A stretch of 64,000 nt of DNA from an uncultured Actinomycetota bacterium (GCA_963837995.1 CAWIPS010000010.1:34285-98284), one strand, 5' to 3'. Counted from the stretch's first letter, positions 10,645 through 29,743 are shown. Notes: a model not told the origin generated them from the sequence alone. A program made the numbers and translations.

Positions 10645-11272
10645 AGCCCTGGCGACGCGCCGCCACGCCCCGGTGTTCCCGGCTGGCGTCCCGGCTGGCT
10701 CACTGGCCGGTGTCCCGGCCGGCTCACGGCCGGCTCACTGGCCGATATCGTCATCGCTGACCCCAAGATGATGTTGCGCCCTCGGCGTGCTGCTCCCTCG
10801 CCCCGCGGATCCGTCCGCGACCGCACACGGGCCGCCCGGTTGCGGACGCGCCTGCGTGAGGCAGCGTGCCATCAATCGAACCATGATGCCTGGTGAACAG
10901 TAAAGGTCGCCGTCGTGACTCACCGAGTCGCCCCGTCTTGGGGCCCGGACCGTGCCGAGTCGGCCACCTGCAGGGTGCGGTTGGCGTCCAGATGTGCGAC
11001 AACGGCTGCCTTTTCGTCGGATCCGCAACCGTTCATATACATATGCGTGGAAACGGCTCTCCGGGTCGACCCTCGACCCCTGAGTCGCTCCTGCGGGGCG
11101 AGCCGCCGTACGGCGGGGTGCCTCGCCGTACGCCGCACTGTCGGGCCACGGCACCGCGCCCGCTCCCCATGGACCGCTGGCGCCTCCCATGGGCCCTGCC
11201 CCGCGGGAGGCGCCCAACGTCCTGGATCCCCCGGTAACTGGCGGGGCGGCCCCCGGTCTCAGACGCGGTCGC

Positions 11273-14200
11273 TCACCGCTTCAGCAGCCGGTCGTCACCG
11301 ACCCGTCGTCGAAGGGCGCGTACGTCGACCGGAGCTGCTCGCGGGCCGCGGCCCACTTGTCGTCCTCCTCGAGGGCCCCGAGCAGCTCCTCGGTGCTGCG
11401 GACGATGGGGCCCGCGGCCACCGACTCGAAGTCCAGGTAGAGGCCGCGGACCCGGTCGCGGTAGTCCTCGAGGTCGGGGGCCAGGAGGATACATCGGCTT
11501 GTCGGTGACCGCGAAGTCGAACATCGCCGCCGAGTAGTCGGTGACGAGCACGTCGGCGGCCAGGTAGAGCCGAGTGATGTCGGGGTAGGCGGTCACGTCG
11601 ACGACTCGCTCTGGGTCTTTACCCGTGACCGGTGCGCGGTGTTGGGGTGCCCGCGCACCAGCACGGTGACGTCCGGCCGGGCGGAGGTGACGGCCTCCGT
11701 GGTCCAGATGCAGCATCTTCTCCCAGGTGCCGCTCCGCGGCGGGCGTCGTCGCGCCAGGTCGGGGCGTACAGAAGCACCGTCTGGTCCTCGCCCACTCCC
11801 GAGCGCGGTCCCGCACCGCCTCCCGCAACCGGCCGGCCCCGGGGCCGAGGAGTACGTCGCTGCTCGGTCTGCCGATCTCGAGGACCCGGCCGGCGTACTC
11901 GAACGCCCGGCGGAAGATCTCGGTGGCAGAACGGCGTTCGGGGAGACGAGGTAGGTCCCAGGTCCGGGCCTGCGGAGAGCAGGAGCCGAAGGTAATGCTC
12001 GGTGGACATCCGCTGGTGCGGGATGTCGGTGCCGATCCGCTTCAGCGGCGTCCCGTGCCAGGTCTGGAGGTAGACCTGGCCGGGCCGCTTCCGGAAGAAC
12101 CAGGGGCAGGGTGTTGTTGGTGACGAGCAGCCGGGCCGACCCCATGGCGTCGTACCACTCCGGGGTGCCCCGCACCACGGCACGGGTGCCCTCGACGGGG
12201 GCCACGCTGAGGTCCTCGACGCTCCAGACCAGGTCGAGGTCGCTGCCGCTCGTCGAGGAGCCGGTCGCACACCGCGCGGGGAGCCTCGCCTGTGCCGGCG
12301 CCCTCGAAGCACTCGAAGACCACTCGCTGCTCGGGGCCCCGGGCCAGCGCACGGGCATAGCCGCCCGGACCGGAGCTGCTGCTGGCCTAGCGGCTCGCAG
12401 TGGCCGGGGCGCCCACCCGGCTGCGTCGCAGCAGCACCCGTCGGTCCGCGGCGATCTCGACCGACCAGCCGTCGAACGGCGACGGAGCGCTGGGTCGGTG
12501 GTAGAGGTGGCCCGCCAGCACCCGGACCGCCGGCTCGTGCTCGGGGTCGGTGTCCGTCTCGGCGACCAGCGTGTAGAGGTTCGGGGGCAGCTGCGGTCCG
12601 CGTCGTCCCCCATGGCGTGTGCCAGAGCGGCACCTCGACGTGCAGAAGGCGCCGTCCAGGACCTCCAGCGATCCCCGAGCCGGAGTCCGCCCGGGGCCAC
12701 GCAGGAGCAGGCGGCCGTCCGCGACCCGGTGTGCCCGCCCCGTCACGACCATCGAGCGGGTGCCGCGGCCGCACGTCGTCGACCAAGAGGCAGGGCTGGT
12801 CCGGTACTGCGGTCAGTCGGCCGTCGTTGCTGACCACCAGGCACGCCTGCTCGTGGCGGACCGAGGCGGGCTCGAGGTCGCCGACGACGGCCAGGGTCTG
12901 CCGGTCCGGGGTCTGCGCGGCGACCCGGACCCGGCCGGTGACCGGGCTGCCCGTGCGGGGCGCGGCCCGGCCAACCGGACCAGCCATCCCGCATTCCCGG
13001 CTCGTCGGCACGATGGTCGCAGGACACGGCATCCGGACCCACATGGACCTGAGTCAGCGCGACCAGGCCCGGCGCGCTGGCGTCGAGCTCGAACGCGTCC
13101 TGGTCCGCGACCACGCGGTGACCGCAGCGTAGTCCCGGTGCACCTCGATCAGGAGACCGCGGCGGTCCGACCAGCTCGTCGTCACCAGCGCGTCGCGCAC
13201 CCGCACCGTCCTCGGGACGACGGCGCTGCCGTGCTCGCTGCGGGACTCGAGACAGTTCTCGACGCGCATCTGCCCGAATGCCGCGTCGACGCGCAGCTCC
13301 CATCGGGCGACCCGTCTCGACCCGCTGGCGGTGACCAGTGCCTCGAGGTCGACCTCGGCGACCACGGTGGACCGCGAGTGGTTCTCGTGGGCGCGGCGGG
13401 CGGCCAGGTTGCCCCCGGGGTCGACCTCGACCCGCGTCGGGACGACCGGGTACGACGTGTCGGCAGGCCCGACCAGCGAGACCGAGGTCGTCACGTCATG
13501 GCGGTCGGGGTCGACGTAGGACAGTGCGGCCAGGAGGCGGACCGCCAGAACGCCGCTGGTGGACCAGTCCAACGAGTCCAGTCGGGTGGTCAGCCGCAGG
13601 TCCACATCCGCGGATCCTCAGGAGCTCGTCCGGGACCATCGGCGGGTGCGGCTCCAGGGCCGGGATCCGAGCGACGAGATGACCGTCTCGGACGGTCACG
13701 GGGAAGTCGGACCCTTCGAACCCCTCGTCGCGCACGAGCCGCCGCAGTGCGTCGCGATGTCCCTGACGACCCAGCCACACCGCGAGCCGGACCCGCAGCT
13801 CCAGCCCGTCGTCGAGGTCCTCGGGAGCCTGCTGGGCGATCGAGACGAGGTTGTCCTGCAGGACTGCCCAGTAGTCGTCCCCGGCGTCCGCCGCCACCTT
13901 GAGGTAGCCGAAGAAGTCCTGACGCAGCGCCTTGACGTACCAGCTTCGAAGCACCGCCTCCGAGGCTGCCTCGCGCAGGAAGCCGGCGAGCTCCCGCTGG
14001 GTGGCCACCCGGTCCAGGAGATCCTGCATCTCCGCCTTCTGCTGGCTGATCGAGCTCCGGTCATCGCGCTTGCGCCACCGGTAGACCACGTGGGGCAGCA
14101 CGTCGAAGGCGCGGGCCTCGAGGTAGGCGCGGGTGATCGGCACCTGGTCCTCATATCGCGTGCCCTCCGGGAACCGCAGTCCGATCCGGTCCACGAACTC

Positions 14201-14809
14201 GCGGCGGAACACCTTGGTGCAGGCCATCACGTTGGTGAGCATCGCCGGGACGTCGTCGATGGTGGTCGCCAGCCGGCGCCGCGCATGGGCCCGCCTGGCC
14301 CACGGCCGCATCCGCTCGACCCCGCCCTCGTCACGCACGAGGGCGCCGACGACGAAGTCCGAGCCGGACCTGCGCAGCGCGGCCACCATCAACCGGTAGG
14401 CATCGGTGGGGACGGTGTCGTCGGAGTCGGCGAAGGTGACCAGGTCGCCGGTGCTGCGGGCCAGGCCCGCGTTGCGCGCCGCCCCCAGACCCGCGTTCTC
14501 CTGACGGACGACGAGCACGCGAGGGTCTCGCTCGGCGTAGCCGCGGGCGATGTCGGCGCTGCGGTCCGTCGACCCGTCGTCGACGAGGATGACCTCGAGA
14601 TGTTCGTAGGTCTGGGTGAGCAACGAGTCCAGGCACTCGGCGAGATAGTCCTCCACCTGGTAGACGGGCACCACCACGCTCAGGAGTGGCTCCTCGGCCA
14701 GCGGCTCGCCCCGTGCCTCCTCAGCCGCCGGCTGACGGCCGCGGGCAACAGCACCGACAGGGGCGAGCCGCCTGAGCCGGTGGCGGACGCGGTCGGCGGC
14801 TCTGCCCAT
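11273..14809 (-). CDS. Bifunctional GT2 / CDP-glycerol glycerophosphotransferase (TagF-like), multiply frameshifted
   Basis: N-term LSVVVPVYQVEDYLAECLDSLL, ILVDDGSTD, TFADSDD; C-term pieces across frames: YLQTWHGTPLKRIG, LLYAPTWRDD, YPDITRLYLAADVLVTDYSAAMFDFAVTDKP. Several indels between 11300 and 13620. Confidence 0.8.
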
Positions 14810-14944
14810 GCGCCGTAAACCTACCGGTGGGGCAGGAGCGCACCAAGCACCCAGAGAAGAGTGGCGAGCCGCGCCCAAACCATCTTCAACCGGTAGATCC
14901 CGGATCACTCGGACCGGGGCACCGAACTGTCCTAACCTCGATAG

Positions 14945-16360
14945 ATGCCCCGAACCCGTGCCGCCCTGGTCCTCGCGCTGACGACCCTGCTGGTGGCCGG
15001 CATCTGCGCTGTGACCACCTCGCCCTCGCAGGCGACGGTCCGGACGAGGGCCTCGTTCCACCTCTCCTCGCAGCATCCCGTCGCCCGTGAGTTCTTCACG
15101 GCGTCCGGACGCGTGTCCACGCGCTTCCGGCGTCCGGTCCTGGTGCGGGCGCTGATCGGACGCAGCTGGCGGGTGGTCCGGCGCGCGAAGACCTCCCCCC
15201 GCGGGGTCTACCGGGTCACCCGGCTCGCGACCACGACTCGTCGCAGGTACTCCGTGATGGTGCCCGCGGTGCGCCGGTCCGGCCGGATCTTCACCGGGGT
15301 CGTCACCGGCGCCCGGATCGTGTCCCCCGTCCGACAGTCCGCCTCAATGGACGTGCTCCCCCCGATCGCCCAGCGCGGCTCGGCTGCCGCGGACTCATCC
15401 TCGGCGGAGAACTCGGTGGTCGCCCGGTTCTCGCCCGCTCGTCCGGGGCGTCCCGTCACGTTCCGCGAACGGAAGCCCGGCGGCCGCTCGGTGGTCCTCG
15501 GACGTGCCACCCGCCAGGGAGCCGACGGCACCGCCTACTTCTTCGGGGCTGCCGGGACCCGCGTGTTCCAGGCGACCACGGCGTCGCGCTCCGGCGCCCC
15601 GGCGGTGACCACCGGCGTCGCCGGCAGCACCTGGGTCCCCACGTTCGACGACGACTTCTCCGGCACGACCCTGGATCCGGCCAAGTGGACCTATCGCACC
15701 GGCCGGACGTCGTCACGCACCCACTCGACCAACGACAAGCGCTCGGTGTCGATGGGGTCCGGGACGCTGCGGTTGCAGGTCAGGCTCGACCCGTCGGCGC
15801 CCAACACCACCGCAGCCAACACCAGGTACCTCAACGGCCAGATCGGCACGCTCGGCACGTACGACTTCACCTACGGTGTCGCAGCGGCCCGGGTCAGGTT
15901 CTCCCCCGTCCGCGGTCAGCACGGGTCGTTCTGGCTGCAGTCCCCGACCTATGGCCGCGTCCCCGGCAACCCGGCAACCAGCGGCACGGAGATCGACGTC
16001 GCCGAGTTCTTCGGCAGTGGCTACCCGCAGGGCGGCTTGGCCAACTACGTCTACTACGCGGATCGGACCGGTCACAACGTCAAGATCGGTGGCGTGTGGC
16101 CACGAGCCGCCACGCTGGCCCCACGAGGAGACACCTGGTGGAACAGCTTTCATGTGTTCTCGGTGAAGTGGGGTCCGCGGGGCTATACCTTCTACGTCGA
16201 CGGACGCGTGCTGTACGCCACCACCCAGGCCGTCTCCAGGACCAAGCAGTACCTCATTCTCAGCCTGCTCACCTCTGACTGGGAGCTGCCGGACCTCCGA
16301 CGAGCCAGCCTGCCGACGTCGATGTCCGTGGACTGGGCGAGGGTGTGGCAAGCCGGATAG
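14945..16360 (+). CDS. Secreted glycoside hydrolase family 16 protein
   Basis: Signal peptide MPRTRAALVLALTTLLVAGICAV; TFDDDFSGTTLDPAKW, YGVAAARVRF, catalytic GTEIDVAE (ExDxxE), SFHVFSVKW, MSVDWARVW. Confidence 0.85.
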   Translation: MPRTRAALVLALTTLLVAGICAVTTSPSQATVRTRASFHLSSQHPVAREFFTASGRVSTRFRRPVLVRALIGRSWRVVRRAKTSPRGVYRVTRLATTTRRRYSVMVPAVRRSGRIFTGVVTGARIVSPVRQSASMDVLPPIAQRGSAAADSSSAENSVVARFSPARPGRPVTFRERKPGGRSVVLGRATRQGADGTAYFFGAAGTRVFQATTASRSGAPAVTTGVAGSTWVPTFDDDFSGTTLDPAKWTYRTGRTSSRTHSTNDKRSVSMGSGTLRLQVRLDPSAPNTTAANTRYLNGQIGTLGTYDFTYGVAAARVRFSPVRGQHGSFWLQSPTYGRVPGNPATSGTEIDVAEFFGSGYPQGGLANYVYYADRTGHNVKIGGVWPRAATLAPRGDTWWNSFHVFSVKWGPRGYTFYVDGRVLYATTQAVSRTKQYLILSLLTSDWELPDLRRASLPTSMSVDWARVWQAG

Positions 16361-16370
16361 GGTCCGCTGG

Positions 16371-18356
16371 GTGACCGCACCGACCGGCCGGTTGGCCGAG
16401 CTGCTCGACGGGGTCGATCGGCTCCTCGTCGTCCGCGGCCCCTCCGTCACCCGCACGGACATCCAGGGGATCTGTGACCGCCCGGAGCTCGATCTGGGGC
16501 TGACCGAGGTGGGGAGGCCCGACTGGGTGCCGGACGAGGCGCTGGACGGGGTGCTGCTGGTGGTGCGCGACCGGATGGAGCTGCGGCAGGTGGTCGGAGC
16601 CTGCCAGGGGCTGCCCGGCAGCCCACGGCTGGGGTGCGTCCTGCTCGACAGCGACCGGCCGCCCCTCACCTCCGGACGGCCACGTTGGCCCGCGGTGCTG
16701 GCGATGGTGGCCGGGTCCTCGCCCGTCTGCTTCACCTTCCTCGAGCTGGCCGGACCCCTCCTGATGGGGGAGCTCACCGCGGACCTCGCCCGGCGGTCCA
16801 CCCCGAGGCACCTGATGTCGCCCGGCTGGCCGGTGCTGGCCCTGGACCGCGAGGCACCGGAGCTGTGGACTCCCGGTGACCCGTTGTCGGTGGTCGGCCG
16901 ATCCGAGGAGATCCTCGACCTGTCCGGCGACTACCCGGCGGACGTGGTGGTGGGCACCCGGTCCGGCGGCGCCCGTGGTGCGAGCCAGGACCGGTCCGCG
17001 CAGGAACATCACGTTCTGGGGTCCCTGTCCCGCACCCTGTTCCTGGCTCCCCCGCTGACCTGGTCGGACTACCACGAGCTGGGCGCCGAGCGCAGCGACC
17101 GGCAGCTCGCCGCCGAGCAGGGGCTCGCGCTGGGCGGCGTCGACTCGCAGCTGGTCAACCCCCAGGGCTTCGTACGCCGCGCCGCCGGGCCGGTCCGCGT
17201 GCTGACCGCCGTACCGGAGGCTCCACATCTGTGCCGGCTGGACACCGATGAGGGCCCGGTCCTGGTGGACACCCGGCGAGGGCCCGGGGAACGCGACCTG
17301 GCGCGGCTGCGGACGCTGCGGGGGGTGCACGTGGACTGGCAGGGGGCGACCGGACCCCGCGACTACGCCCGGCTCGTGGTCGCGCTGGCGATGGCCGGGG
17401 TGCCGCTGACCAGCGACCCCGCCCCGACCTGGGCCCGGGCCCAGCTGCACCCGGACCTGCTGGCGGCGACAGCGGGCGCAAGCGACCTCGACGACCCCAT
17501 GGCTCGAGAGGTCCGCAGCATCCGTGCCCGGCGCGTGGCGCTGGCCCGGCACAGCTCCGATGCCTGGCGGCGCCGGGTGGCCGAGGCGACCGGCGCGGCG
17601 GCCCCGCCGACTCCGCGGGTCAGTGTCCTGCTGCCCACGCGCCGCCCCGACCTCCTCGCGTTCGCGCTGCGCCAGGTCACCCGACAGCGCGACGTGAAGC
17701 TGGAGCTGGTGCTGGCCACGCACGGCCACGACCCCGACCAGCGCCTCCTCGACGAGGTTCGCGAGAGCGCCTCGCTGCCCGTCACTGCGGTGAGCGCGCC
17801 GGCCGAGGCGCCGTTCGGATCCCTGCTCAACGTGGCGGCCGGAGCCGCGACCGGTGACCTGTTGCTGAAGATGGACGACGACGACTGGTACGGCCCGGAC
17901 TTCGTGGGCGACCTGCTCCTGGCCCGCCAGTACAGTGGCGCCGACGTCGTCGGCACCCCGCCGGAGTTCATGTACGTCGAGGCGCTGAACGTGACGGTGC
18001 GCCGCAAGGACGCGACCGAGTCGTTCCGCCCGGTGGTGGCCGGCGGCACCATGCTGATCTCTCGGGAATGCTTCACCGCGGTAGGGGGGTTCCGGCGGAT
18101 GCGCCGCTACGTCGACGCGGGTCTCCTCCAGGGCGTCCTGGCGGCCGGCGGGTCCGTCTACCGGACGCACGGTCACGGCTACCTGCTGCGCCGAGGGGAC
18201 CGGGGCACACCTGGGACCCGGGGCTCGGCTACTTCGTGAGCCGCTCGCGGACCGCGGAGCAGTGGCGAGGCTTCCGGCCCAGCGTGCTCCTCGATGCCGA
18301 CGACGCCGACCGTCCGGCGTCCCCCGAGCCGCGCCCGCGAGAGGTCCCCCAGATGA
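16371..18356 (+). CDS. GT2 family glycosyltransferase, frameshift at ~18203
   Basis: VSVLLPTRRP, LLKMDDDDWYG; continues after a missing G in a G-run as GHTWDPGLGYF...; probable ATGA junction at 18353-18356. Confidence 0.7.
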
Positions 18357-20070
18357 CCGCCGGGGCCTTCCTGCGGCGCACGGACCAGCCCGCGCGTGCC
18401 GGGCAACGACTGGCCCTCGCTGCGGCCCGACCCGCTCGGTGAGCTGGCGCCCACCCGGACGGTCACGTGGTGGTCCCTGCCTACCAGGCGTGGCGGACCC
18501 TGCCTTACACGCTGGCGGCACTGGCCCACCAGACCTACCCCGCGGAGCTGACCGAGGTGGTCATCGTCGACGACGGCAGCGACCCACCGCTGACGCTGCC
18601 CCGCGTGCGCCCGGCGCACACCAGGATCGTGACGACCGCCGGTCCTGGGGACGTGCGCATGCCTGCCACGTGGGGCCTGCGCGGCCGCGGGCGACGTGCT
18701 GCACTGGCTGGACGCGGACATGCTTCCGCATCGCGACGAGATCGAGGCGCAGATGCGCTGGCACCACCTGCTCGGACTACGCCGTCGTGCTCGGCACCAA
18801 GACGTTCGTCGACGTCGACCGACGGCCTGCCTGGCCTCGAGGACGTCGCCGGAGGCGGTGCGCGAGGGCCGGGCCGCCGAGCTGTTCGCGGGCCGGTGGA
18901 CCGCGCCGCACGAGTGGGTCGAGGAGCACCTCGAGCGCACCCACGGGCTCACCGCCAACCCGACCACGAGCTATCTCGTCCACGTCGGCGCGAGCGCATC
19001 CGTCGGCCGCGATCTCTACCTGGACTCCGGAGGGATGGACCCGGCGCTCAAGGCGGGCGAGGACATCGAGCTCGGCTACCGGCTCGCCCAGCAGGGCGCG
19101 GTCTGTTCGTGCCCGGACCGCGAGGCCCGGTCCTGGCACCTGGGCCGGTCGACGCTGATGGGGTGACCAGGAGGCAGTCAACGCCTACAACCGGCCCTTC
19201 GTCACCGACCGGGTGCCCGACCTGCGGCACTGGCGGACCAAGGGTCGCTCCTACACCGTCCCGTGGGTCGAGGTGGTGGTCGACGCGACCGACCACACCT
19301 TCGAGGAGGTCCGGCACTCCGTCACCGGCGTCCTGACCGGCAGCTCCCAGCGATGTCCGGGCCGTCGTCGTCGGTCCCTGGTCGCGGCTGACGGACGGAC
19401 GCCGGCCCCGCTGCTGGGGACCCGGACCTGAACCTGCGGATGGTCCGCGCGGAGCTGGTCGGCGACCCCCGCGTCCGGTTCGTCGAGGAGCTGCCCCGCA
19501 CGGCGTTCCCGGCGACGTTCCGGCTGCTTCTGCCGGCCGGCTGGGCACCGGGCCCGACACCCTCCGCCGGCTGGCCCGCGAGATGACCCACCGGGACCGT
19601 GGGCTGGTCTCGCTGGCACTGCCGGACGGCCGGGTGGCGCGTCTGGAGCGGACCTCCGCGTTCAACCGGGCGGCCCGCGTCGCAGCCAGCCGACCCGACG
19701 GCACCACGAGGATGGGCTCGACGAGGTGGTCGACCAGGTGTCGAGGGCCTGGTGGTTCGACGGCGCCGAGGAGGGGTTCCACCACCTCGCCGACGCGACG
19801 GCGCCGTCGGCTGGGGCCGCCTCAGCAGCCGGCCCGGCCACCTCGGCTCCGGCCACCGGGCCCGGCCACCCGCGGCCCCGGCGGAGGTCCGCAGCCAGGA
19901 GACGGAGGGCGGCCGCGGCCGCCCGGACCGGGGCGGCGCGGCGCTCGGACCTGCCCGCCACAGACGCCCCCGCGGACCCCGGTGCACCCGCCGACGCCGC
20001 GGAGCGCGGACCCGCCCGCAGGCTGCTCGGGCGGGCGGTCCGCCGCCGGCAGCAGCCCCCCGCTCGATGA
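18353..20070 (+). CDS. GT2 family glycosyltransferase, multiply frameshifted
   Basis: Fragments [55 protein letters not shown] in successive frames; ends ...QQPPAR-TGA overlapping the nuoD-like ATG. Confidence 0.65.
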
Positions 20071-21224
20071 GCGGGCTCACCCGGTCGACCGTCGGGGTGG
20101 GGGCCGCGGCCGGCGTGACCAGCCACGACCTGGTCCTCGACATGGGCCCCCACCACCCCTCCACGCACGGCATGCTGCGGCTGCGGCTGACGCTCGAGGG
20201 GGAGCACATCGTGGGCTGCGAGCCGGAGGTGGGGTTCCTGCACCGGGGGGTCGAGAAGCTCTTCGAGGTGCGGGACTACCGGCAGATCATCATGCTCGCC
20301 AACCGGCACGACTGGCTCTCGGCGTTCTCCTCCGAGCTGGGGGTCGTGCTCGCGGTGGAGCGGATGCTCGGCCTGGAGGTCCCGCAGCGGGCCACCTGGA
20401 CGCGCACCCTGCTCGCCGAGCTGAACAGGGTGCTGAGCCACCTGATGTTCCTCGGCGCCTGCCCCGTGGAGCCGGCGCCGTCGCCGATGCCGACGTTCCG
20501 CGAGCGGGAGGCGGTCCAGGCGGTGATGGAGGAGCTGTCCGGTGGCCGGATGCACTACATGTTCAACCGGGTCGGCGGCCTCCGGGAGGACCTCCCTGCG
20601 GGGTGGCCGGCCCGGGTCGCCCGGGTGGTGGCCCAGGTCCGCGCATCGCTCCCCCGCGTCGAGGAGGCGGTCCTCGGCAGGCCGGGCTTCGACTCCGCCA
20701 CCCGTGGCATCGGGGTGCTGGACCCCGCGCTGGTCGACGCGTACGGCGTCAGCGGCCCCCTCGCGCGGGCCTCCGGCGTCGACGTCGACCTGCGCCGCGA
20801 CGAGCCCTACCTCGCCTACGCCGACCTGCTCCGCGACGGGGTCCTCGAGGTGCCGGTGCGCCACGAGGGCGACTGCGCCGCGAGGTTCCGGCTGCTGCTG
20901 GACCAGGTGGGAGCGTCCCTGACCCTCGCCGAGGCGTGCCTCGAGCGGCTCGGGTCCCTCGGGACGGGGCCGGTCAACGTGCGCCTCCCGAAGATCCTGC
21001 GGCCGCCGGAGGGCTCGACGTACGCCTGGACGGAGAGCCCGCTGGGCATCAACGGCTACTACCTGGTGTCCCGCGCGGAGAGGACGCCGTGGCGGATGAA
21101 GGTGCGCACCGCGTCCTTCAACAACGTGGCGGTGCTGCCCGCCGTGCTGGAGGGCTGCCGGGTCTCCGACCTGGCGGTCGTCCTGGGGTCGCTGTTCTTC
21201 GTGGTGGGCGACATCGACAAATGA
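20067..21224 (+). CDS. nuoD: Stand-alone NADH-quinone oxidoreductase subunit D-like protein (49 kDa subunit family)
   Basis: [65 protein letters not shown], terminal VVGDIDK; no CxxC Ni ligands. Confidence 0.9.
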
Positions 21225-21306
21225 GACGTTCGGTATTGTCGCCTCGCAACCTCGCCCTCCCCGCCGCTTTCGCGCCCGCCCACCCCCGACCCAGGCCGGA
21301 GACCCC

Positions 21307-22419
21307 ATGCCGCCCGACGCCGACCCCGATCCGGGACAGGTGCTGCTCGTCGTCGTGACCGGGTCCGGGCGCAGCGGCACGAGCACGGTGGCCGGCACCC
21401 TGAAGATGCTCGGCAGCTATGTCCCGCAGCCCGAGATCGCGCCGAACGAGGCGAACCCCCGCGGCTACTTCGAGCCCAAGTGGACCGTCGCGTTCCACAA
21501 GAAGGTGCTGGCCGAGGCGGGCGTGCGCACCCTGGACGGCCGGCCCGTCGCCCGCGAGCTGATGGAGCCGGTGACCGGTCGCGAGGACCTGCTCGCCGAG
21601 CTCCGCGACTGGTTCGCGACCCAGCTCCAGGCCCCCCAGGTGGTGGTCAAGGACCCCCGCATCGTCTGGCTCCGCGACATGTGGTCCACGGTGGCCGGCG
21701 ACCTCGGCGCCGGCACCCGGTGGCTGACCATGCTGCGGCATCCCGCGGAGGTGGTCGGCTCCCGCGACCGGCACTACCTCGCGGGTGCCGACGACGTGCG
21801 CCGGTTGGCCCGCGAGACCGCCAACCTCGCCGGCTGGGTGAACGTCGGGCTGGTCAACGAGCGGGCCTCCCGGGGCGACCGGCGCGTCTTCGTGCACTAC
21901 ACGGACATGATCAGCGACTGGCGCTCTGCGATGGGGGTGGTGGCCGACCGGCTCGGTCTGACCTACGACGTCGACCTCGCCGACGGGGCGCACCACCCGG
22001 TCGACGACTTCATCGACGTCAGCCTTCGCCGGGTGCAGGTGACGCTCGACGACCTCGATGTGCCGGCCAACCTGCGGGAGATCGCCGAGACCGTGTGGAG
22101 CGGGCTCGCGGCACTGGCCCGGGACCCGGACGACGCGGCGGCCATGCGCAGCCTCGACGGTGCCCGCGAGGACTACGACCAGCTCTTCCGGCACTCCGCG
22201 GCCCTCGTGCAGGACGCCACCGACTTCGCCGTGCTCGACACCAGGCGGCGGGTGCGGCGCAACGTCACCCGCAGCCTGACCAAGGAGCTCCAGGCCCAGC
22301 AGACCGAGCAGGCCCAGCAGGCCCAGCAGGACGAGCAGGGGGGGCCGGCAGCGACGGGTGCGCTGCTGCGCCGGGCCGCCGCCAAGGCCCGGCGCGTGCT
22401 GAGCGAGCGCCGCGGATGA
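21307..22419 (+). CDS. Sulfotransferase-family protein
   Basis: VVVTGSGRSGTSTV, NEANPRGYFE, VVKDPR, MLRHPAEVVGS, VFVHYTDMISDW. Confidence 0.75.
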   Translation: MPPDADPDPGQVLLVVVTGSGRSGTSTVAGTLKMLGSYVPQPEIAPNEANPRGYFEPKWTVAFHKKVLAEAGVRTLDGRPVARELMEPVTGREDLLAELRDWFATQLQAPQVVVKDPRIVWLRDMWSTVAGDLGAGTRWLTMLRHPAEVVGSRDRHYLAGADDVRRLARETANLAGWVNVGLVNERASRGDRRVFVHYTDMISDWRSAMGVVADRLGLTYDVDLADGAHHPVDDFIDVSLRRVQVTLDDLDVPANLREIAETVWSGLAALARDPDDAAAMRSLDGAREDYDQLFRHSAALVQDATDFAVLDTRRRVRRNVTRSLTKELQAQQTEQAQQAQQDEQGGPAATGALLRRAAAKARRVLSERRG

Positions 22420-25082
22420 CCCCAGCCGAGCTCGTGTCGGCTGCCCGCCGCAGGCTCGCCGTGGGGACGCGGCTGCGCGCCGGCGAGGCCCAGGTCCTCG
22501 CGGCGCGCTACGCCCGGTGGCGCACCCAGCCGGTGCAGCCGCGCACGGTGCTCTACGAGGCGTTCTCCGGCAACGGCATGCTCGACAACCCCGAGGCGAT
22601 CTTCCGGCACCTGCTGACCCAGCCGGACATGGCCGACCTCAGGCATGTGTGGGTGCTCGACGACCTGGAGGCGCACCCGGAGGTGCGGGCCGAGTTCGCG
22701 GAGCACCCGCGGGTGCGGTTCGTCCAGATCCGCTCGGCGGCCTACTTCAAGGCGCTGGCCACCTCGACGTACCTCGTGAACAACGCGACCTTCCCGCAGG
22801 AGTTCGCGAAACGACCCGAGCAGGTCTACCTCAACACCTGGCACGGCGTGCCCCTCAAGCACATGGGCTTCGACATGCCCGAGGGCGGCCCGTTGTCGCG
22901 CAACGTGCTCCGCAACTTCCTGAACGCCGACTACCTGCTCAGCGCGTGCCCCTTCATGACCCGCACGATGTACCGCGACGCCTACCGGCTGCAGGGCATC
23001 TTCCGGGGCGCCGTGGTCGAGGAGGGCCAGCCCCGCACCGACCGGCAGGTCCAGGCGGCGTCCCGTCCCGAGGACGCCCGGCGTCTGCTCGCCGAGCGAG
23101 GGGTCGACATCGGCGACCGCCGGGTGGTGCTGTTCGCACCCACGTGGCGGGGTGACTCGTTCACGGATCCGCACGTCAACGCGGCCCAGCTCGTGTCCAC
23201 GGTCCGCGAGCTGCAGAAGGGGCTCGGTGACGAGCACGTCGTGCTGCTCAAGGTCCACCAGGCCGTCTTCGAGAGGGCCCAGAAGCGCGTCGGCCAGCAC
23301 AGCTTCCTGGTCCCCAACAGCATCCCCACCAACGTGGTGCTGGCGGTCGCGGACGTGCTGGTGACCGACTACTCCAGCATCTTCTTCGACTTCGCCGGCA
23401 CCGGGCGCCCGATCGTGCACTTCGTGCCGGACCTGTCGGCCTACAGCCGGGGCCGCGGGCTCTACCTCGAGGAGGCCGAGCTGCCCGGGCCGTTGTGCGC
23501 CACGGTCGAGGAGACGCTCCAGGAGGTCCGCGCCGGACTGTCTGCCGGTACGTCGCAGCGGGTGCAGGCCTTCGCCGAGACCTACGCCCCCCGCGACGAC
23601 GGCTCGGTGTGCGCGCGGGTGGTGGACCTGGTGTTCCGGGGGCGTGAGGAGTCCCCCTCCACCGTGCACCGCGACTTCGGCACGGACAAGGAGACCCTGC
23701 TGGTCTACCTGGGCAGCATGAAGTCCCAGGGCATCACCAGCTCGGCGCTGAACATGCTGCGCAACCTCGACTTCGACCGCTACGACGTCACCGCGTTCTT
23801 CCCCTGGACCCGCGGGCGGGACCGCTACAAGAACATCCTGCTCGTCGACGACCGGGTGCGGATCGTCCCCCGGGCGACGCTGTTCATCGGGTCCCCGCGC
23901 CGGGTGCGGGAGGAGACCCGGAACCTGATGACCAACGGCCTCCCGGCCGCCCTCGACGAGCGGCACACGAGGTTCTGGGCCGACGAGTGGCAGCGGATGT
24001 TCGGCCACGCCCGCTTCGACCACCTCATCGACTTCAGCGGCTACGGCTGCTACACGCCGTTCCTCTACAGCGTGACCCCGGCGAGCACCAAGTCGATCTG
24101 GCTGCACAACGACATGCACGCCGACATGCAGAGGGAGACCATCGGGGAGAAGCACCTCGAGGACCGGCTGCGGGCCGTCTTCTCGACCTACCGCTACTTC
24201 GACCACCTGGTGTCGGTCTCACCGTCCCTGGACCGGGTGAACCGCGAGAAGCTGTCCGGCTACGCGCGTCCGGACCAGTTCACCTACGCCGCGAACACCA
24301 TCGACGGTGACCGGGTGCTGCGGATGGCCGGCTTCTCCCCCGAGGAGTCCCCCGACGACGCGCGCGCCTCGGGCAGCGTGCGCAGGGCGGTGTCGGCGTC
24401 GGCCTCGGAGCGCTCCGCCACCTTCGACACCGAGAACCTCGCCGCTGCGGTCACCAGCCTGCTCCAGCACTACCAGCCGATGCCGGTGATCCGGGAGATC
24501 CGGAGCCGGCTGCACTTCGTGCGGGCGGAGGTCGGTGACGACGAGGCGGTGTTCGTGACCGTGGGCAGGCTCTCGCCGGAGAAGAACCACGCACGGCTGG
24601 TCCGGGCGTTCGCGGAGGTCCACGAGGAGCAGCCGGCCACCAGGCTGGTCATCATCGGCGGCGGGAAGCTGGAGTTCGAGCTCGACGACCTGGTGCACAG
24701 CCTGGGGCTGGAGTCCGCGGTGACGCTGACCCGCCAGGTGGACAACCCCTACGCGATCATGGCCGAGTCGCACTGCTTCGTGCTCTCCAGCGACTACGAG
24801 GGCCAGCCCATGGTGATCCTGGAGGCCCGGGTGCTGGGGCTGCCGGTGGTCACCACGGCGTTCTCCTCGGTCGGCGACTCGGTCCCCGCCGGGGCCGGGC
24901 TCGTGGTCCCGCAGACCGTCGCGGGCGTCGCCGACGGGATGCGCCAGTTCCTGGCCGGCAAGGTGCCCTCCTCGACCCTGGACGCGCACGCCTACAACCG
25001 GGCTGCGATGGAGCAGTTCGACCGTGCCGTGCACGGTCTCTCACCAGAGCTCGAGCAGCCGGTCGACGGTCTGGGCGGCTGA
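22416..25082 (+). CDS. CDP-glycerol glycerophosphotransferase (TagF-like) fused to GT4 glycosyltransferase
   Basis: NTWHGVPLKHMG, FAPTWRG, VLVTDYSSIFFDF; C-term FVTVGRLSPEKNH, LSSDYEGQPMVILEA. Real start ATG 22416 (ATGA overlap), not ORF-track 21480. Confidence 0.9.
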   Translation: MTPAELVSAARRRLAVGTRLRAGEAQVLAARYARWRTQPVQPRTVLYEAFSGNGMLDNPEAIFRHLLTQPDMADLRHVWVLDDLEAHPEVRAEFAEHPRVRFVQIRSAAYFKALATSTYLVNNATFPQEFAKRPEQVYLNTWHGVPLKHMGFDMPEGGPLSRNVLRNFLNADYLLSACPFMTRTMYRDAYRLQGIFRGAVVEEGQPRTDRQVQAASRPEDARRLLAERGVDIGDRRVVLFAPTWRGDSFTDPHVNAAQLVSTVRELQKGLGDEHVVLLKVHQAVFERAQKRVGQHSFLVPNSIPTNVVLAVADVLVTDYSSIFFDFAGTGRPIVHFVPDLSAYSRGRGLYLEEAELPGPLCATVEETLQEVRAGLSAGTSQRVQAFAETYAPRDDGSVCARVVDLVFRGREESPSTVHRDFGTDKETLLVYLGSMKSQGITSSALNMLRNLDFDRYDVTAFFPWTRGRDRYKNILLVDDRVRIVPRATLFIGSPRRVREETRNLMTNGLPAALDERHTRFWADEWQRMFGHARFDHLIDFSGYGCYTPFLYSVTPASTKSIWLHNDMHADMQRETIGEKHLEDRLRAVFSTYRYFDHLVSVSPSLDRVNREKLSGYARPDQFTYAANTIDGDRVLRMAGFSPEESPDDARASGSVRRAVSASASERSATFDTENLAAAVTSLLQHYQPMPVIREIRSRLHFVRAEVGDDEAVFVTVGRLSPEKNHARLVRAFAEVHEEQPATRLVIIGGGKLEFELDDLVHSLGLESAVTLTRQVDNPYAIMAESHCFVLSSDYEGQPMVILEARVLGLPVVTTAFSSVGDSVPAGAGLVVPQTVAGVADGMRQFLAGKVPSSTLDAHAYNRAAMEQFDRAVHGLSPELEQPVDGLGG

Positions 25083-27956
25083 CCGGCCGCTCTCCAGCGG
25101 GCAGAACCGGGCCCGGAACCGGGCCCGCCGTGCGGCGTCGCCGTCCTCACTTCGCAGCGCCTCCACCACCCCGGCGGTGGACCGGGTCATCGGGCCCGGG
25201 GCGTGCTTCTCGAGGTCGAAGTAGAAGCCCCGCTCCACCTCGCGGTACTGCTCGAGGTCCGGAGTCAGCAGCACGATCGGCCTGTCGGTGAGCACGAAGT
25301 CGAACATCACCGAGGAGTAGTCGGTCACCAGCACGTCCGCCGCGAGGTACAGCTCCGCGATGTCCGGGTAGCGGGTGACGTCGTGGATCCTCGGCCGGTC
25401 GCCGTACGCCTCGGGCTCGGTGGTGGCGGTGTAGTGACCGCGCACCAGCACCACGACGTCCGGGCACGCCCGGATCACCTCGTCCGCGTCGAGGAGCAGC
25501 GGCTTGGACTCCCGCTCCCCGAGGTGGCTGCGCCAGGTGGGTGCGTAGAGCAGCGCCCGGTCCTCGGGCCGCAGGCCGAGCCGGCGGCGCACCCGGGCCC
25601 GGACCTCGCCCGCGTCGTCCGCGAGCAGCAGGTCGTTGCGCGGGTAGCCCACCTCCCACAGCGGGCCCTCGTAGCGGAAGGCACTGCGGAAGATGTCGGA
25701 GGTCTCGGGGCCCGGTGAGAGCAGCGCGTCCCACCGCGCCGCCTGGGCGTTGATCCGGCGCCGGTGTCGCCAGGTCGCGAAGTCGCCGGGGCCGCGGTCT
25801 TCCCCGATGTGCTTGAGGGGGGTGCCGTGCCAGGTCTGCAGGTGGATCTGCCCGGGCCGCTTCTCGAACCAGTACGGCGCCCCGGCGTTCGCGACGTAGG
25901 CGTGGGCGTGCCCCAGGGCGTCGTACCACTCCTGCGAGCGGCGTACGACGGCCCGGGTGCCCGTCGGCACGACCACCCCCGGGTCGTCGACGACCCAGGC
26001 CAGGTCGAGTGCCAGGTCGCGGGCGAGCAGCTCCCGGCAGATCGCACCCGGGTTGTCAGCGACGCTCCGGCCGCGGAAGCTCTCCAGCAGGACCGTCCGG
26101 TCGTAGGACGGCGCGTCGGGCGACGCCGGGGCCGCGTAGACCCGGGAGAGCAGCTGCTGCTGGGCGAAGGGCCCGCGCTCGTGGGCCCGCAGCGGCGCTC
26201 GGACCCGCAGCGCGAGGACCTGGTCGTCACCGGCGAGCGTCACCCGCTGACGGTCGTCGACCAGCTCGGGTGGCCGGTCGAGGAGCCCGGCCGACCAGCG
26301 CGCCGACACCTCCGACCCGTCCCGGCCCGTCAGCCGCAGCTCGTAGCGCCCGGCCCGCAGCCGCACCGGCTCGCCGAGCTGCAGGCTGCTGAGCCGGACC
26401 GCGCCGGTGAACCGCCCGTCCCGGACCTCCAGCACCGCCGGTGACGAGCTGGCGTGGACGCCGGTGAGGTTCGCACCGAGCTCCGTCTCGCTGCTGCGAC
26501 CGGCCAGGGTCAGGACACCCGCTGCCAGGGAGAGGGAGTCCACCTCGGCTCGAGCCGGCGGCTGTGGAGCGGGCGGGCCGGCGACCTCGTGACGGGTGGT
26601 CCGCCCCGCCGCGTCCACCTCGACGGTCCAGTGGGTGCCCGGGCGACCCGCCAGCACCGACGCGTCGAACCACGCCGTCCAGCCGGCGTCCGACCTGTCC
26701 TCGAAGGCGCGCGCGGCCCACTCGTCGGTGCGCTGGTCGCGGCGGAGCTCGACGTGCAGCGGCACCGGGCCGTCCGGGCCGAGCAGCGTCACCTCGGGCA
26801 GCGGCATCTCCTCGACGTACTCGGTGAACGTCGCCCCCTCGACCCGGCACCGTCTCCCCACCACGGCCGTCCGCCCGGACACCCAGACCCGTGGCCTGCG
26901 GTCCACCTCCTGAACGGCCCGCCACTGCAGGGGTACGTCGACCGACAGGCTGTCGGGGACCGGCGCGACCCCGTCCCGGACCGGGAGCCCGTGCGGATGG
27001 TCGGCCAGCAGGTCCTGGACCAACGCGACGTCCTGCAGCGTGCCGTGCCGCACCGGCCACGCGCCGAGCCGGGCCGCCAGCGGGACCCGTCGGGGGTCCA
27101 TCGCGTCGAGGAGGGCGGCACTTCCCTCGGCGAGGACCGTGAGGTAGGGCTCTGCGCCGCCGACCGCGTCGACGTACAACGGGGGCAGGAGGTGGGTGGC
27201 GACCAGGTCGCACCAGCCCGGCGGGGCGGTGGGAAGGGCCCGGCGGAGCGCGCCGAGCCGGGTGGCCAGCACCTGCGGCTGGAACCGCGGCTGCTCGCGC
27301 ACCGGGAGCCACCTGCTGTCCTGCGTCGACTCGGCCACCACCCGAGCCAGGACGTCGAAGGAGCCGGCCGCCGAGTAGGCCGCGAGCACCGCTGCCGGAC
27401 CGGCCTCGGCGACACCTCCCGGTCGCAGCCGCAGCCCGGCGCTGCGCCAGCAGTCGAGCCGGAACATCTTGTTGCTCACCGAGAGGTCCACGAGCGCCAG
27501 CGGGCAGGAGGCGGTGCTCTGCCGCAGCCGCCGTCGGCTGAACAGCTCCTCCGACCAGCCACGAGGAGCGGGGTCGCGGAGGTCCCCCACGACCAGGTCC
27601 GAGCCGGTCTCGTCCAGGACGGCCGCCATCGCCGCCCAGGCGTCCGGCACCAGCGTCTCGCCGCGGGCGAGCACGACGAGGTAGTCCCCGCCGGCGGCGC
27701 CCACCGCACCGTCCAGGGTGGTCGACCGGGAGACCGTCAGGTCGGCGACGGCGCCCGGCAGGTCCACGTCCGGCTCACAGACGACCACGAGCTCCAGGTC
27801 GGGTGCTCCACCGGCGGGCAGCCGCCGTGACAGCAGGTCAAGGGAATCGACGCCCTCGAGGACCACCGAGACCCGCCGCCGCGCCGTCCGTCGTCCGGCC
27901 GTCCTGGACCTGAGGCCGCGGGCCAGCCGCCGAGCGGTCCCGCCCAGTCGTCTCAC
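25041..27956 (-). CDS. CDP-glycerol glycerophosphotransferase (TagF-like) with degenerate N-terminal GT2-like domain
   Basis: LQTWHGTPLKHIG, LYAPTWRS, DVLVTDYSSVMFDF; start GTG 27956 overlaps the GNAT stop (GTGA). Confidence 0.85.
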   Translation of the reverse strand: MRRLGGTARRLARGLRSRTAGRRTARRRVSVVLEGVDSLDLLSRRLPAGGAPDLELVVVCEPDVDLPGAVADLTVSRSTTLDGAVGAAGGDYLVVLARGETLVPDAWAAMAAVLDETGSDLVVGDLRDPAPRGWSEELFSRRRLRQSTASCPLALVDLSVSNKMFRLDCWRSAGLRLRPGGVAEAGPAAVLAAYSAAGSFDVLARVVAESTQDSRWLPVREQPRFQPQVLATRLGALRRALPTAPPGWCDLVATHLLPPLYVDAVGGAEPYLTVLAEGSAALLDAMDPRRVPLAARLGAWPVRHGTLQDVALVQDLLADHPHGLPVRDGVAPVPDSLSVDVPLQWRAVQEVDRRPRVWVSGRTAVVGRRCRVEGATFTEYVEEMPLPEVTLLGPDGPVPLHVELRRDQRTDEWAARAFEDRSDAGWTAWFDASVLAGRPGTHWTVEVDAAGRTTRHEVAGPPAPQPPARAEVDSLSLAAGVLTLAGRSSETELGANLTGVHASSSPAVLEVRDGRFTGAVRLSSLQLGEPVRLRAGRYELRLTGRDGSEVSARWSAGLLDRPPELVDDRQRVTLAGDDQVLALRVRAPLRAHERGPFAQQQLLSRVYAAPASPDAPSYDRTVLLESFRGRSVADNPGAICRELLARDLALDLAWVVDDPGVVVPTGTRAVVRRSQEWYDALGHAHAYVANAGAPYWFEKRPGQIHLQTWHGTPLKHIGEDRGPGDFATWRHRRRINAQAARWDALLSPGPETSDIFRSAFRYEGPLWEVGYPRNDLLLADDAGEVRARVRRRLGLRPEDRALLYAPTWRSHLGERESKPLLLDADEVIRACPDVVVLVRGHYTATTEPEAYGDRPRIHDVTRYPDIAELYLAADVLVTDYSSVMFDFVLTDRPIVLLTPDLEQYREVERGFYFDLEKHAPGPMTRSTAGVVEALRSEDGDAARRARFRARFCPLESGRSAAQTVDRLLELW

Positions 27957-29038
27957 GGTCCCGCGTCGTCCGGCATGTCCACGTGCACGTCCTTGTGCCA
28001 GGACTGGGTCATGTAGGTCGTGGTCCACCCCATCGACGTGTACAGCCCGTCGGCGCCGGTCGGGGAGTCGGCGTCCACCTCCAGGCCCACCCGGTCGCGC
28101 CCGTTGGCCGCCGCGTGCGCGATGATCGTCCGCAGCAGGGACTTGGCGACGCCGCGGCCCCGTGCGTTGGGCAGCACGCCCAGGTAGGACACGTAGCTCC
28201 CGTCGGGCTGCCCGGCGGCGCCCTCGGAGACCGAGCCGACGAGCACACCGGCCGGCTCGGGGGACGGACCGTCCACGAGCTCGGCCACCCACCAGTGGTC
28301 CCAGCGGTGCCCGGGATCCTCGCGGAGCCGGTAGACGAACTCGTCGAAGGTCTCCGCATGGCTGTTGAAGTGGTCGGCGAACGCAAGCTCCAGCACGTCG
28401 TGCACGGTGCGCAGGTCGACCTCGTCGGGCATCCCGGTGCCCTGGCGGACGACCCCCCGGATCCGCACCCCCGGCCCCGTCCCGGCACCGAGGTCCGCCT
28501 CGTCCGCGGAGACCGGCCGGGTCATCTGCCACCACGTGCGGACCTGCTCGAACCCGGCCCGCTCCAGCCACCGCTGCTGCCGGACGTCGCCGTCGAACGC
28601 ACCCGTGTCCACCTGCTGGGTCTCGAGCCATCGCTGGCGGCCGACCCGCTCGGCGGCCTCGTCCGCCCAGCCGAGCAGTGCGGCCGCCGCCTGGTCGGCG
28701 AGCCCGTCGGCGAGCCGCCAGTCGACCACCAGCGTGAGGAGCATCCGCCCGGCCGCCCGGTCGTGCGCACTCGCCCAGCCGCGCAGCTCGCCCTCCGCGT
28801 CGCGGAGCACCAGGTTGTCCCTCGTGCGGGGACCGCCCATGGACCCGGAGCCGGACAGCTCGACGTGCACGTCGGCCTCCGAGGCGCCGCTCCAGCCGCG
28901 GGCGTGCTCCTCGTGGCGCCTCAGCAGCGCGGTGAGCTCGACGACGTCGGCCTCGTCCGGCTTGGCGCTGGACCAGCCGGTCGGGAGGCCTGGTGCGGAT
29001 GCGGCGGAGGGGGAGGTCACCGTTCCATCCTTGCGCAT
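27953..29038 (-). CDS. Tandem GNAT N-acetyltransferase
   Basis: VSYLGVLPNARGRGVAKSLL (acetyl-CoA motif A), VGLEVDADSPTGADGLYTSMGW. Confidence 0.85.
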   Translation of the reverse strand: MRKDGTVTSPSAASAPGLPTGWSSAKPDEADVVELTALLRRHEEHARGWSGASEADVHVELSGSGSMGGPRTRDNLVLRDAEGELRGWASAHDRAAGRMLLTLVVDWRLADGLADQAAAALLGWADEAAERVGRQRWLETQQVDTGAFDGDVRQQRWLERAGFEQVRTWWQMTRPVSADEADLGAGTGPGVRIRGVVRQGTGMPDEVDLRTVHDVLELAFADHFNSHAETFDEFVYRLREDPGHRWDHWWVAELVDGPSPEPAGVLVGSVSEGAAGQPDGSYVSYLGVLPNARGRGVAKSLLRTIIAHAAANGRDRVGLEVDADSPTGADGLYTSMGWTTTYMTQSWHKDVHVDMPDDAGP

Positions 29039-29093
29039 GCCGGCCCGGCCCCGTCGCCCAGCCGGACCTGGTCCTGCGTCCGGCCGCCCCGGC

Positions 29094-29726
29094 TCAGGCG
29101 TGCGCCGCGGCCTCGGACGCGGGCGTGGTTGCGACCGGGGTCGCAGGCGGGGTTGCGGGCTGGGTCGCGGGCCGGGTCGCGGGCCGGGTGCCGGCCTCCA
29201 GCTCGGCGACCCGGGCGGAGAGCCGCTGCACCTGGTCCTGTGCCTCACCCACCCGGCGTGCCTCGCGCTGCACCCGGGTCTCCGCCTCCGCCGCCCGCCG
29301 CTCGGCCTCGAGGGCACGCTGCTCGGCGCCGGCGGTGCTCCTGCCCAGCTCGGCGACCTCGCGGTCGCGACGGGTGAGCCGGGCCGTCATCGCGGCGGTG
29401 AACTCGAGGTGCTCGGCGGCACGGGCGGCGAACACCGAGCGGTAGGCCTCGGCCTGCGCGGCCCGGTCGGCGGCAGCCTCCCGCCGGCTCTGCACGAGCT
29501 CGGAGTAGACGATCCGGGCTGCCGCCCAGCCGCACAGCAGGGCGAACACGGAGGAGATGCTGAGCCACACCGGGGACTGCGTCGGGAGGGCCAGCAGCAC
29601 CACCACCGTGGCGACGGCGAGCAGGCCGACCGACACGGTCACCCGCACGCTGCGCTGCCGGCGCCGCCCGGGGCGGGAGGCTCCGCTGGTCACGACCGTG
29701 GGGAGGGCAGAGCCAAGGACAGCCAT
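29094..29726 (-). CDS. Hypothetical membrane protein with coiled coil and PAT-repeat tail
   Basis: Two hydrophobic segments, then ELVQSRREAAADRAAQAEAY... coiled coil; tail TRPATRPATQPATPPAT. Confidence 0.65.
   Translation of the reverse strand: MAVLGSALPTVVTSGASRPGRRRQRSVRVTVSVGLLAVATVVVLLALPTQSPVWLSISSVFALLCGWAAARIVYSELVQSRREAAADRAAQAEAYRSVFAARAAEHLEFTAAMTARLTRRDREVAELGRSTAGAEQRALEAERRAAEAETRVQREARRVGEAQDQVQRLSARVAELEAGTRPATRPATQPATPPATPVATTPASEAAAHA
29138..29189. repeat. Imperfect 12-bp tandem repeat (GGGTCGCGGGCC x4)
   Basis: Units at 29138, 29150, 29162, 29174. Confidence 0.8.
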
Positions 29727-29743
29727 GACCCCAGGGTAGGAGG

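Follow-up and report, generated by a model that had tools for sequence, protein, structure and literature searches.

A sulfotransferase gene coupled to a TagF-type polymerase gene suggests a possible sulfated teichoic-acid-type polymer in a soil Nocardioidaceae bacterium

Introduction

Teichoic-acid-type polymers determine the charge of the Gram-positive wall and its binding of cations, and they govern phage recognition and the control of autolysins. The known substituents of teichoic acids are D-alanine, sugars, acetyl, succinyl, lysyl, and pyruvate; to our knowledge, sulfation is not among them. Can such a polymer be sulfated? The question is raised by a 64,000-nucleotide (nt) stretch of DNA from an uncultured actinobacterium (hereafter the window), which belongs to contig C10 of a 4.34-Mb genome assembled in 13 contigs with a completeness of 98.4%. 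On its plus strand, a row of six genes at 14945-25082 places a putative sulfotransferase directly before a TagF-type polymerase. The first-pass annotation had read the whole row as a possible pathway for a sulfated teichoic-acid-type wall polymer, with a low-GC island as a candidate source of the sulfate donor 3′-phosphoadenosine 5′-phosphosulfate (PAPS). The enzymes, their substrates, and their linkage stood up to our analysis; the roles given to a NuoD-like gene, a GH16 gene, and the island did not, and sulfation itself is a prediction from genomics. We conclude that this is a variable wall-glycopolymer locus of a soil Nocardioidaceae bacterium. According to our best reading, which we regard as moderately probable, it would encode a Cps3D-like poly(glycosyl-glycerol phosphate) polymerase and a coupled PAPS sulfotransferase that together make a sulfated teichoic-acid-type polymer.

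Results

The gene preceding the polymerase encodes a predicted PAPS-type sulfotransferase

The gene at 21307..22419 (plus strand) encodes a protein of 370 amino acids, which had been named a sulfotransferase as an RSGTS-type protein. Both fold and motifs bear out this identification. Its match to the Pfam family Sulfotransfer_3 (PF13469; E value 2.8e-4, 21.6 bits) lies below the gathering cut-off of 27 bits; many close homologs within a family of more than 750 members carry a precomputed PF13469 assignment. The 5′-phosphosulfate-binding (5′-PSB) loop, GSGRSGTS, occupies residues 19-26, and its G19, G21, R22, S23, G24, T25, and S26 are invariant in 42 aligned homologs. The same holds for R144, P146, E148, V149, and S152 of the 3′-phosphate-binding (3′-PB) motif, RHPAEVVGS (residues 144-152), as well as for E56 and K115. 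We take the loop to be the xRSGTx form found in tyrosylprotein and CurM-type sulfotransferases.

A plain phmmer search of the Protein Data Bank (PDB) returned only a chance P-loop match, and profile and fold searches were needed. The profile search matched the sulfotransferase domain of olefin synthase (OLS; 4gox), with an alignment that runs across the 3′-PB motif. When the AlphaFold2 model of the protein (predicted local distance difference test score 91.6) was compared with the PDB by Foldseek, the best 15 matches were all sulfotransferases (E values 9e-6 to 1.4e-3, probability 1.0), namely, the OLS and CurM domains, TPST1/2, and Stf1 of Mycobacterium tuberculosis. The TM-scores of these matches reached only 0.35-0.50 and are low because of extra helices. 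In the model, a 67-residue helix (277-343) follows the catalytic core and leads into a basic amphipathic end, LLRRAAAKARRVLSERRG. Only close relatives conserve the C-terminal tail well; matches in other families span residues ~10-305 only.

Weaker Foldseek matches (E values 4e-3 to 2e-2) included PFKFB kinase domains and zeta/PezT toxins, as might be expected if the protein belonged to the P-loop kinases or phosphotransferases and phosphorylated the polymer. However, the GSGRSGTS loop has no Walker-A lysine, which makes a kinase unlikely, the sulfotransferase-specific 3′-PB motif RHPxxVxxS is invariant, and the best structural matches are sulfotransferases without exception. We therefore consider a kinase very improbable. 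The assignment as a PAPS-type, TPST/CurM-like sulfotransferase holds as a prediction from motifs and modeled fold.

The coupled polymerase is a TagF-GT4 fusion whose closest solved relative is Cps3D

The next gene, at 22416..25082 (plus strand), encodes an 888-amino acid TagF-GT4 fusion. Its N-terminal Glyphos_transf domain (residues 34-407, E value 6.8e-83) scores 279.1 bits against a cut-off of 22.1 and covers profile positions 5-366 of 367, which confirms its placement in the TagF family by the first-pass annotation. The C-terminal GT4 domain (Glycos_transf_1, residues 707-849) scores 101 bits (E value 4.9e-29). Two histidines, H143 in TWHGVPLK and H281 in LLKVHQ, align with H444 and H584 of Staphylococcus epidermidis TagF (3l7i), which we take to be its catalytic pair.

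The best solved relative, ahead of S. epidermidis TagF, is Cps3D (8qoy, E value 6.6e-86), with residues 23-639 of TagF-GT4 matching residues 367-963 of the 8qoy chain. Enzymes of this type join a glycosyltransferase to a polyol-phosphate transferase, and their product is a poly(glycosylpolyol phosphate) that resembles wall teichoic acid (PMC5974469). We infer that TagF-GT4 would make a Cps3D-type poly(glycosyl-glycerol phosphate). The enzyme is thus predicted to work like the Cps3D/Cps7D family; its domain order and context nevertheless lead us not to class it as a capsule polymerase. All Glyphos_transf genes of the genome, three of TagF type, are located within the window.

The sulfotransferase is linked to phosphodiester polymerases across genera

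The sulfotransferase gene is translationally coupled to the polymerase gene: in the ATGA at 22416-22419, the ATG of the polymerase gene overlaps the sulfotransferase stop codon. This overlap is conserved in the loci L107, L108, and L109; the first two, from GCA_025935715.1 and GCA_025927785.1, represent the closest relatives, with a nucleotide identity of 84-85%. Within the genus, the sulfotransferase gene lies immediately upstream of the TagF-GT4 gene in 6 of 12 loci, while neither gene is adjacent in 4.

The tightness of this coupling, together with the helix spanning residues 277-343 and the basic amphipathic end of the AlphaFold2 model, would also suit a different role, in which the sulfotransferase acts as a chain terminator. 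By analogy with the WbdD kinase-methyltransferase of the Escherichia coli O9a mannan, a single sulfate at the growing end would stop TagF-GT4 and set the chain length, with the long helix serving as a spacer or as a dock for the membrane or the polymerase. The weak conservation of the C-terminal tail outside close relatives speaks against this, our results fit terminal and repeat-unit modification equally, and we know of no sulfate cap. We consider chain termination unlikely.

Outside the genus, the pairing recurs in several forms. The sulfotransferase and TagF-GT4 genes also stand together in another genus (L133), and a metagenome-assembled genome of Segeticoccus contains an isolated module of TagD, sulfotransferase, and GT2-TagF fusion genes amid unrelated metabolic genes. 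At other loci, the sulfotransferase is paired with a fusion of GT4 and Stealth, a hexose-phosphate transferase polymerase. We sampled the neighbors of sulfotransferase homologs from other genera in two sets of 22 and 20 loci, with a distance limit of 3 kb, and found a TagF-like or Stealth gene in 27 of the 42 loci, a count that overstates independence, as the loci are phylogenetically related. As each genome has few genes for phosphodiester polymerases, chance would hardly place the sulfotransferase beside two different kinds of them. Gene neighborhoods thus link the sulfotransferase family nonrandomly with TagF-like or Stealth polymerases outside the genus. The family itself is present in 29 of 81 Nocardioidaceae genomes, spread over 20 of 45 genera; among 401 sampled Actinomycetes genomes, 27 contain it.

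These neighborhoods also bear on whether the sulfotransferase acts on the TagF product at all. Its acceptor could be an unrelated glycolipid, small metabolite, or protein tyrosine, and its place beside polymerase genes would then only reflect that variable envelope loci collect such genes. In keeping with this, the closest folds include tyrosylprotein sulfotransferases, sulfotransferase domains of polyketide synthases (PKSs), and mycobacterial Stf1, and some paralogs adjoin SMC, desaturase, or GH1 genes. On the other hand, the stop/start overlap with TagF-GT4 is kept in several genomes, the Segeticoccus three-gene module occurs in a nonenvelope context, and two different kinds of phosphotransferase polymerase are found repeatedly next to members of the family. 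We therefore consider an acceptor other than the polymer improbable.

As a separate observation, several Nocardioides-type genomes contain one or two sulfotransferase homologs that adjoin a GT4-Stealth fusion of ~900 amino acids, a hexose-1-phosphate transferase polymerase (L112 8001-12875; L113-L116). From this pairing, one would expect a polymer of another type than that of TagF, namely, a sulfated poly(glycosyl phosphate).

The genome can supply both activated substrates

Genes for both activated substrates lie outside the cluster. A TagD-like glycerol-3-phosphate cytidylyltransferase is encoded at C7:459240-459716, so the genome can make cytidine diphosphate (CDP)-glycerol. A genuine adenosine 5′-phosphosulfate (APS) kinase is encoded at C10:206539-207000 (194 bits), so it can also make PAPS. 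The low-GC island is thus not needed as a PAPS source; APS kinase is present elsewhere in the genome and in 75 of the 81 family genomes. The phyletic correlation between sulfotransferase and APS kinase among these 81 genomes was uninformative, as APS kinase is present with or without the sulfotransferase.

We also observed that the N-terminal part of the APS kinase region (C10:205387-208158) resembles a degenerate ATP-sulfurylase/PUA domain, with no QxRNPxH-type motif found there by eye. Such a layout resembles enzymes that carry an inactive sulfurylase-like domain.

For the remaining steps of a teichoic-acid-type pathway, the genome contains, outside the window, one WecG/TagA-like gene, four LCP genes, two PF00953 genes, and 13 ABC-2 permeases, among which no dedicated TagGH pair was identified.

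The following route would be consistent with these genes. As its homology suggests, TagF-GT4 would extend a lipid-linked primer on the cytoplasmic side of the membrane, adding glycerol phosphate (from CDP-glycerol) and sugar in alternation to build a poly(glycosyl-glycerol phosphate) chain. The sulfotransferase, as its gene linkage suggests, would place sulfate on the polymer before export, drawing on the cytoplasmic PAPS that the housekeeping APS kinase provides. The later steps, export and LCP-mediated ligation to peptidoglycan, would then depend on genes elsewhere in the genome.

The gene order of the row is conserved in relatives

We placed coding regions by codon-position GC content and Pfam matches. 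The row starts with a GH16 glycoside hydrolase gene at 14945..16360, followed by a first GT2-like gene (16371..18356), a second GT2 gene (18353..20070), and the NuoD-like gene (20067..21224), which precedes the sulfotransferase and TagF-GT4 genes; all six are on the plus strand. The first-pass annotation was correct in describing six co-oriented coding regions, five of which Pfam and codon GC confirm, but not all are intact in the assembly, which shows a stop at 18237 and many frameshifts that it had passed over. The ATGA overlaps it had reported at 18353, 20067, and 22416 are all present in the sequence, as are the short intergenic gaps, which measure 10 nt between the GH16 and GT2 genes and 82 nt between the NuoD-like and sulfotransferase genes. 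A search for terminator-like sites found none above chance.

In L107 and L108, all six genes are called intact with the same three ATGA overlaps, and they are likewise intact in L034. Thus, the arrangement is conserved and not due to chance. The calls in L107/L108 comprise, in order, a GT2-TagF fusion (1185 amino acids), GH16 (477), first GT2 (660), second GT2 (532), NuoD-like (388), sulfotransferase (369), TagF-GT4 (888), and third TagF-like (986) genes. The first GT2-like gene of the window, whose Pfam GT2 match is weak (26.1 bits), corresponds to L107 5178-7160, which also has an ATGA overlap with the following gene.

The GH16 protein (471 amino acids; PF00722, E value 1.2e-12) contains a catalytic EIDVAE motif at residue 349. 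It had been counted as a step of the pathway. The signal peptide it carries argues otherwise, as the protein is hence exported and does not take part in cytoplasmic synthesis; it could possibly remodel wall glycan.

The other two TagF-type genes flank the row on the minus strand. The GT2-TagF fusion lies just upstream (10735..15076; ortholog of 1185 amino acids at L107 40-3597). The third TagF-like gene (25041..28000) is convergent with the row; its Glyphos_transf domain is at the C terminus (297.8 bits), its N-terminal part has no Pfam match, and its ortholog in L107 (13732-16692) is 986 amino acids long. The length of the ortholog places the true start near 28000, and the coding phase switches at 27960. 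Longest-open reading frame (ORF) calls at 25041-28631 and 27953-29771 overlap heavily in this region (1196, 454, and 225 amino acids). According to the orthologs and the coding phase, it holds three shorter intact genes, for the third TagF-like protein (~986 amino acids), a GNAT protein (~365 amino acids), and a 205-amino acid protein without a Pfam family. We therefore rejected the view that 25041-28631 and 27953-29771 are frameshifted, as these are intact genes with over-long first-start ORFs. The GNAT gene (27953-29317) is also found in the relatives L029 and L030, which lack the TagF insertion, and thus belongs to the backbone and not to the cluster.

The NuoD-like gene is a bystander

The protein encoded at 20067..21224 (385 amino acids; Complex1_49kDa, PF00346, E value 4.9e-56) had been included among the pathway members. 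It is a full-length paralog of NuoD outside any nuo operon, scoring 126+65 bits, while the canonical nuoD is located at C8:497828 (360 bits). Homologs with 63-80% identity occur in Kribbella, Aeromicrobium, Actinomadura, Streptosporangium, and many Streptomyces. In these genomes, the gene lies tail-to-tail with a DUF3180-folK-folB-folP-folE-ftsH block, with no glycan genes nearby. Of 76 loci, 70 have a gene for a PF02636 (MidA-like) methyltransferase within 10 kb, and in 18 this gene lies directly upstream in the same orientation; the one in the present genome, at C10:32355-33270, closely precedes the window. PF02636 corresponds to the MidA/NDUFAF7 family, and mitochondrial NDUFAF7 methylates the NuoD homolog NDUFS2.

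This synteny with the fol/ftsH block and the methyltransferase indicates that an ancestral gene came to be flanked by inserted wall-polymer genes, and we conclude that the ancestral order was the MidA-like methyltransferase, the NuoD-like gene, and then the fol/ftsH genes. The NuoD-like gene, a conserved neighbor of the fol/ftsH block across Actinomycetes that occurs also in genera without glycan genes, is a bystander, and the stop/start overlap with the upstream GT2 gene does not make its product a pathway enzyme. On the same grounds, together with the MidA-like synteny, we rejected the idea that the protein contributes redox chemistry to the pathway. Its neighborhood suggests a stand-alone methyltransferase-substrate pair outside complex I, and the orphan gene is better studied with its MidA-like neighbor than with the glycan genes.

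At the corresponding site of Aeromicrobium panaciterrae (L048 8154-10004), we observed that the NuoD-like gene is immediately preceded by a gene whose 616-amino acid product contains a polysaccharide pyruvyl transferase domain, and that TagF and GT2 genes lie farther upstream. Thus, the same chromosomal site hosts different wall-polymer decoration genes in different genera.

Two frameshift patches are very likely assembly errors

Two patches of single-base indels, at 11295-13117 and 18197-19699, interrupt genes of the window. The frame of the first GT2-like gene ends at a TGA at 18237-18239 and not at 18356, the cause being a 1-nt deletion near 18197. It is regained near 18331, which identifies the ATGA at 18353 as the homologous gene junction. 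No frame is open from 18240 to 20070, where the GC content at the third codon position (GC3) flips phase every few hundred bases and the GT2 signal is spread over frames. We counted about 12-20 isolated indels of 1-2 nt in the second GT2 gene (MAFFT alignment against five intact orthologs; L034; L107); a frameshift-aware alignment with the L034 ortholog gave 70% identity and zero in-frame stops once the frames were followed. In the GT2-TagF fusion gene, the N-terminal GT2 half is open (13496-15076), while the C-terminal Glyphos_transf half is broken by the patch at 11295-13117, which shows about 28 isolated indels relative to L107. Pfam matched this half in separate pieces, over two frames in one scan and as four pieces in another.

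If these frameshifts were real, the second GT2 and GT2-TagF fusion genes would be pseudogenes of a decaying locus, in which only the part with the NuoD-like, sulfotransferase, and TagF-GT4 genes still works. This would agree with the confinement of the indels to two sharp patches, next to ~8 kb of adjoining genes without a single uncompensated indel relative to L107, with the genome completeness of 98.4%, and with the high variability of the locus between species. Yet, divergence from L107 within the patches (14.4-15.4%) equals that of the intact flanking genes, and substitutions fall at codon position 3 (51-60%; 0.60 in the second GT2 gene) as often as they do in intact genes. Twenty neutral indels should bring many neutral substitutions; none were seen, and we therefore read the patches as errors. 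No in-frame stop occurs in the second GT2 gene despite its 12-14 frameshifts, one patch extends from the first GT2 gene into the second, and frame splits also affect further genes of the assembly. Decay of the locus thus seems to us an unlikely explanation. Judging from these sequence comparisons, the patches are very likely local assembly errors, and the pathway is probably intact in the cell despite the broken genes of the assembly.

The other genes found to be split across frames are an ABC-2 permease gene (C8:539018-539469) and the MidA-like methyltransferase gene at C10:32355-33270. A whole-genome hidden Markov model of codon-position GC flagged about two dozen further candidate frame-switch stretches; this model is too crude for locating frameshift patches, as it labeled 21.6% of the genome noncoding. 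As sharp indel patches split conserved genes, gene calls from this genome need care.

Discussion

Our analysis moderately favors a Cps3D-like polymerase acting with a coupled PAPS sulfotransferase on a teichoic-acid-type polymer. Several observations weigh against it. The sulfotransferase falls short of the Pfam gathering threshold (21.6 versus 27 bits), and the presence of APS kinase does not follow that of the sulfotransferase. The cluster itself has no exporter, TagD, or LCP gene, and genuine frameshifts would leave part of the locus nonfunctional. The sulfotransferase is missing from half of the genus loci, including two of the 12 (L018 and L026) that retain TagF-GT4, so that sulfation would be optional. 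For 15 of the 42 sampled loci, we detected neither a TagF-like nor a Stealth gene within 3 kb; there, the homolog lies near GT2, GT4, further sulfotransferase genes, or unrelated genes. Last, sulfation is argued from genes, not chemistry, and the acceptor of the sulfotransferase is a predicted one.

A broader reading, to which we give a little less than an even chance, is that one sulfotransferase family may have co-evolved with TagF-like and Stealth polymerases across several actinobacterial families. There would then be widespread, undescribed “sulfo-teichoic acids,” sulfated in the cytoplasm on the lipid-linked chain. If such polymers exist, the sulfate ester would give them a permanent charge that is independent of phosphate, a feature that could be important for abundant soil actinobacteria under phosphate limitation, and they would widen the known range of bacterial wall chemistry. 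The sulfotransferase-polymerase pair is small, which makes the prediction directly testable in vitro.

Our literature search for sulfated teichoic acids or sulfotransferase-TagF clusters, which left Russian structural work on actinomycete wall polymers largely uncovered, found no description of either. Sulfated polysaccharides in actinomycetes were still treated as unverified in a 2026 paper (PMC13390465). The wps-1 cluster of Actinoplanes missouriensis (PMC13390465) is an actinomycete glycan cluster with embedded sulfotransferases, predicted to make a sulfated exopolysaccharide, for which, as here, sulfation is deduced from genes. It differs in being Wzx/Wzy-dependent, without a TagF-type or phosphodiester polymerase, and in that its sulfotransferases belong to different families.

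Compared with the TPST and CurM/OLS sulfotransferases (PF13469; 4gox, 4gbm, and 3ap1), the enzyme described here is alike in fold, 5′-PSB loop, and 3′-PB motif, and its conserved glutamate and lysine are at positions consistent with the catalytic pair of those enzymes. In contrast, identity to them is only 12-18%, and the long C-terminal helical extension is an additional feature. Its genomic partner is a glycopolymer polymerase and not a PKS or a protein substrate of the secretory pathway.

In comparison with the wall teichoic acid pathway of S. epidermidis and Bacillus subtilis (TagF 3l7i, TagD, TagA, TagO, TagGH, and LCP), the catalytic histidine pair is kept. TagD, TagA-like, PF00953, and LCP genes of that pathway type are present, but they are scattered and not clustered, and the polymerases are fused to glycosyltransferase domains, unlike in the S. 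epidermidis/B. subtilis pathway.

Cps3D of Actinobacillus pleuropneumoniae serotype 3 (8qoy; PMC5974469 and PMC8262930) combines, as does TagF-GT4, a TagF-like and a GT-B domain in one polypeptide. The order of domains in Cps3D is glycosyltransferase, TagF, and tetratricopeptide repeat (TPR), whereas the present enzyme has its TagF domain at the N terminus and its GT4 domain at the C terminus, with no TPR match in Pfam. Cps3D acts in the context of a group 2 capsule, while the present host is a Gram-positive actinobacterium without group 2 capsule machinery, and a sulfotransferase coupled to the polymerase is not described for Cps3D. Thus, the TagF-like polymerase machinery of this locus is of a known kind, and the coupled sulfotransferase is its new element.

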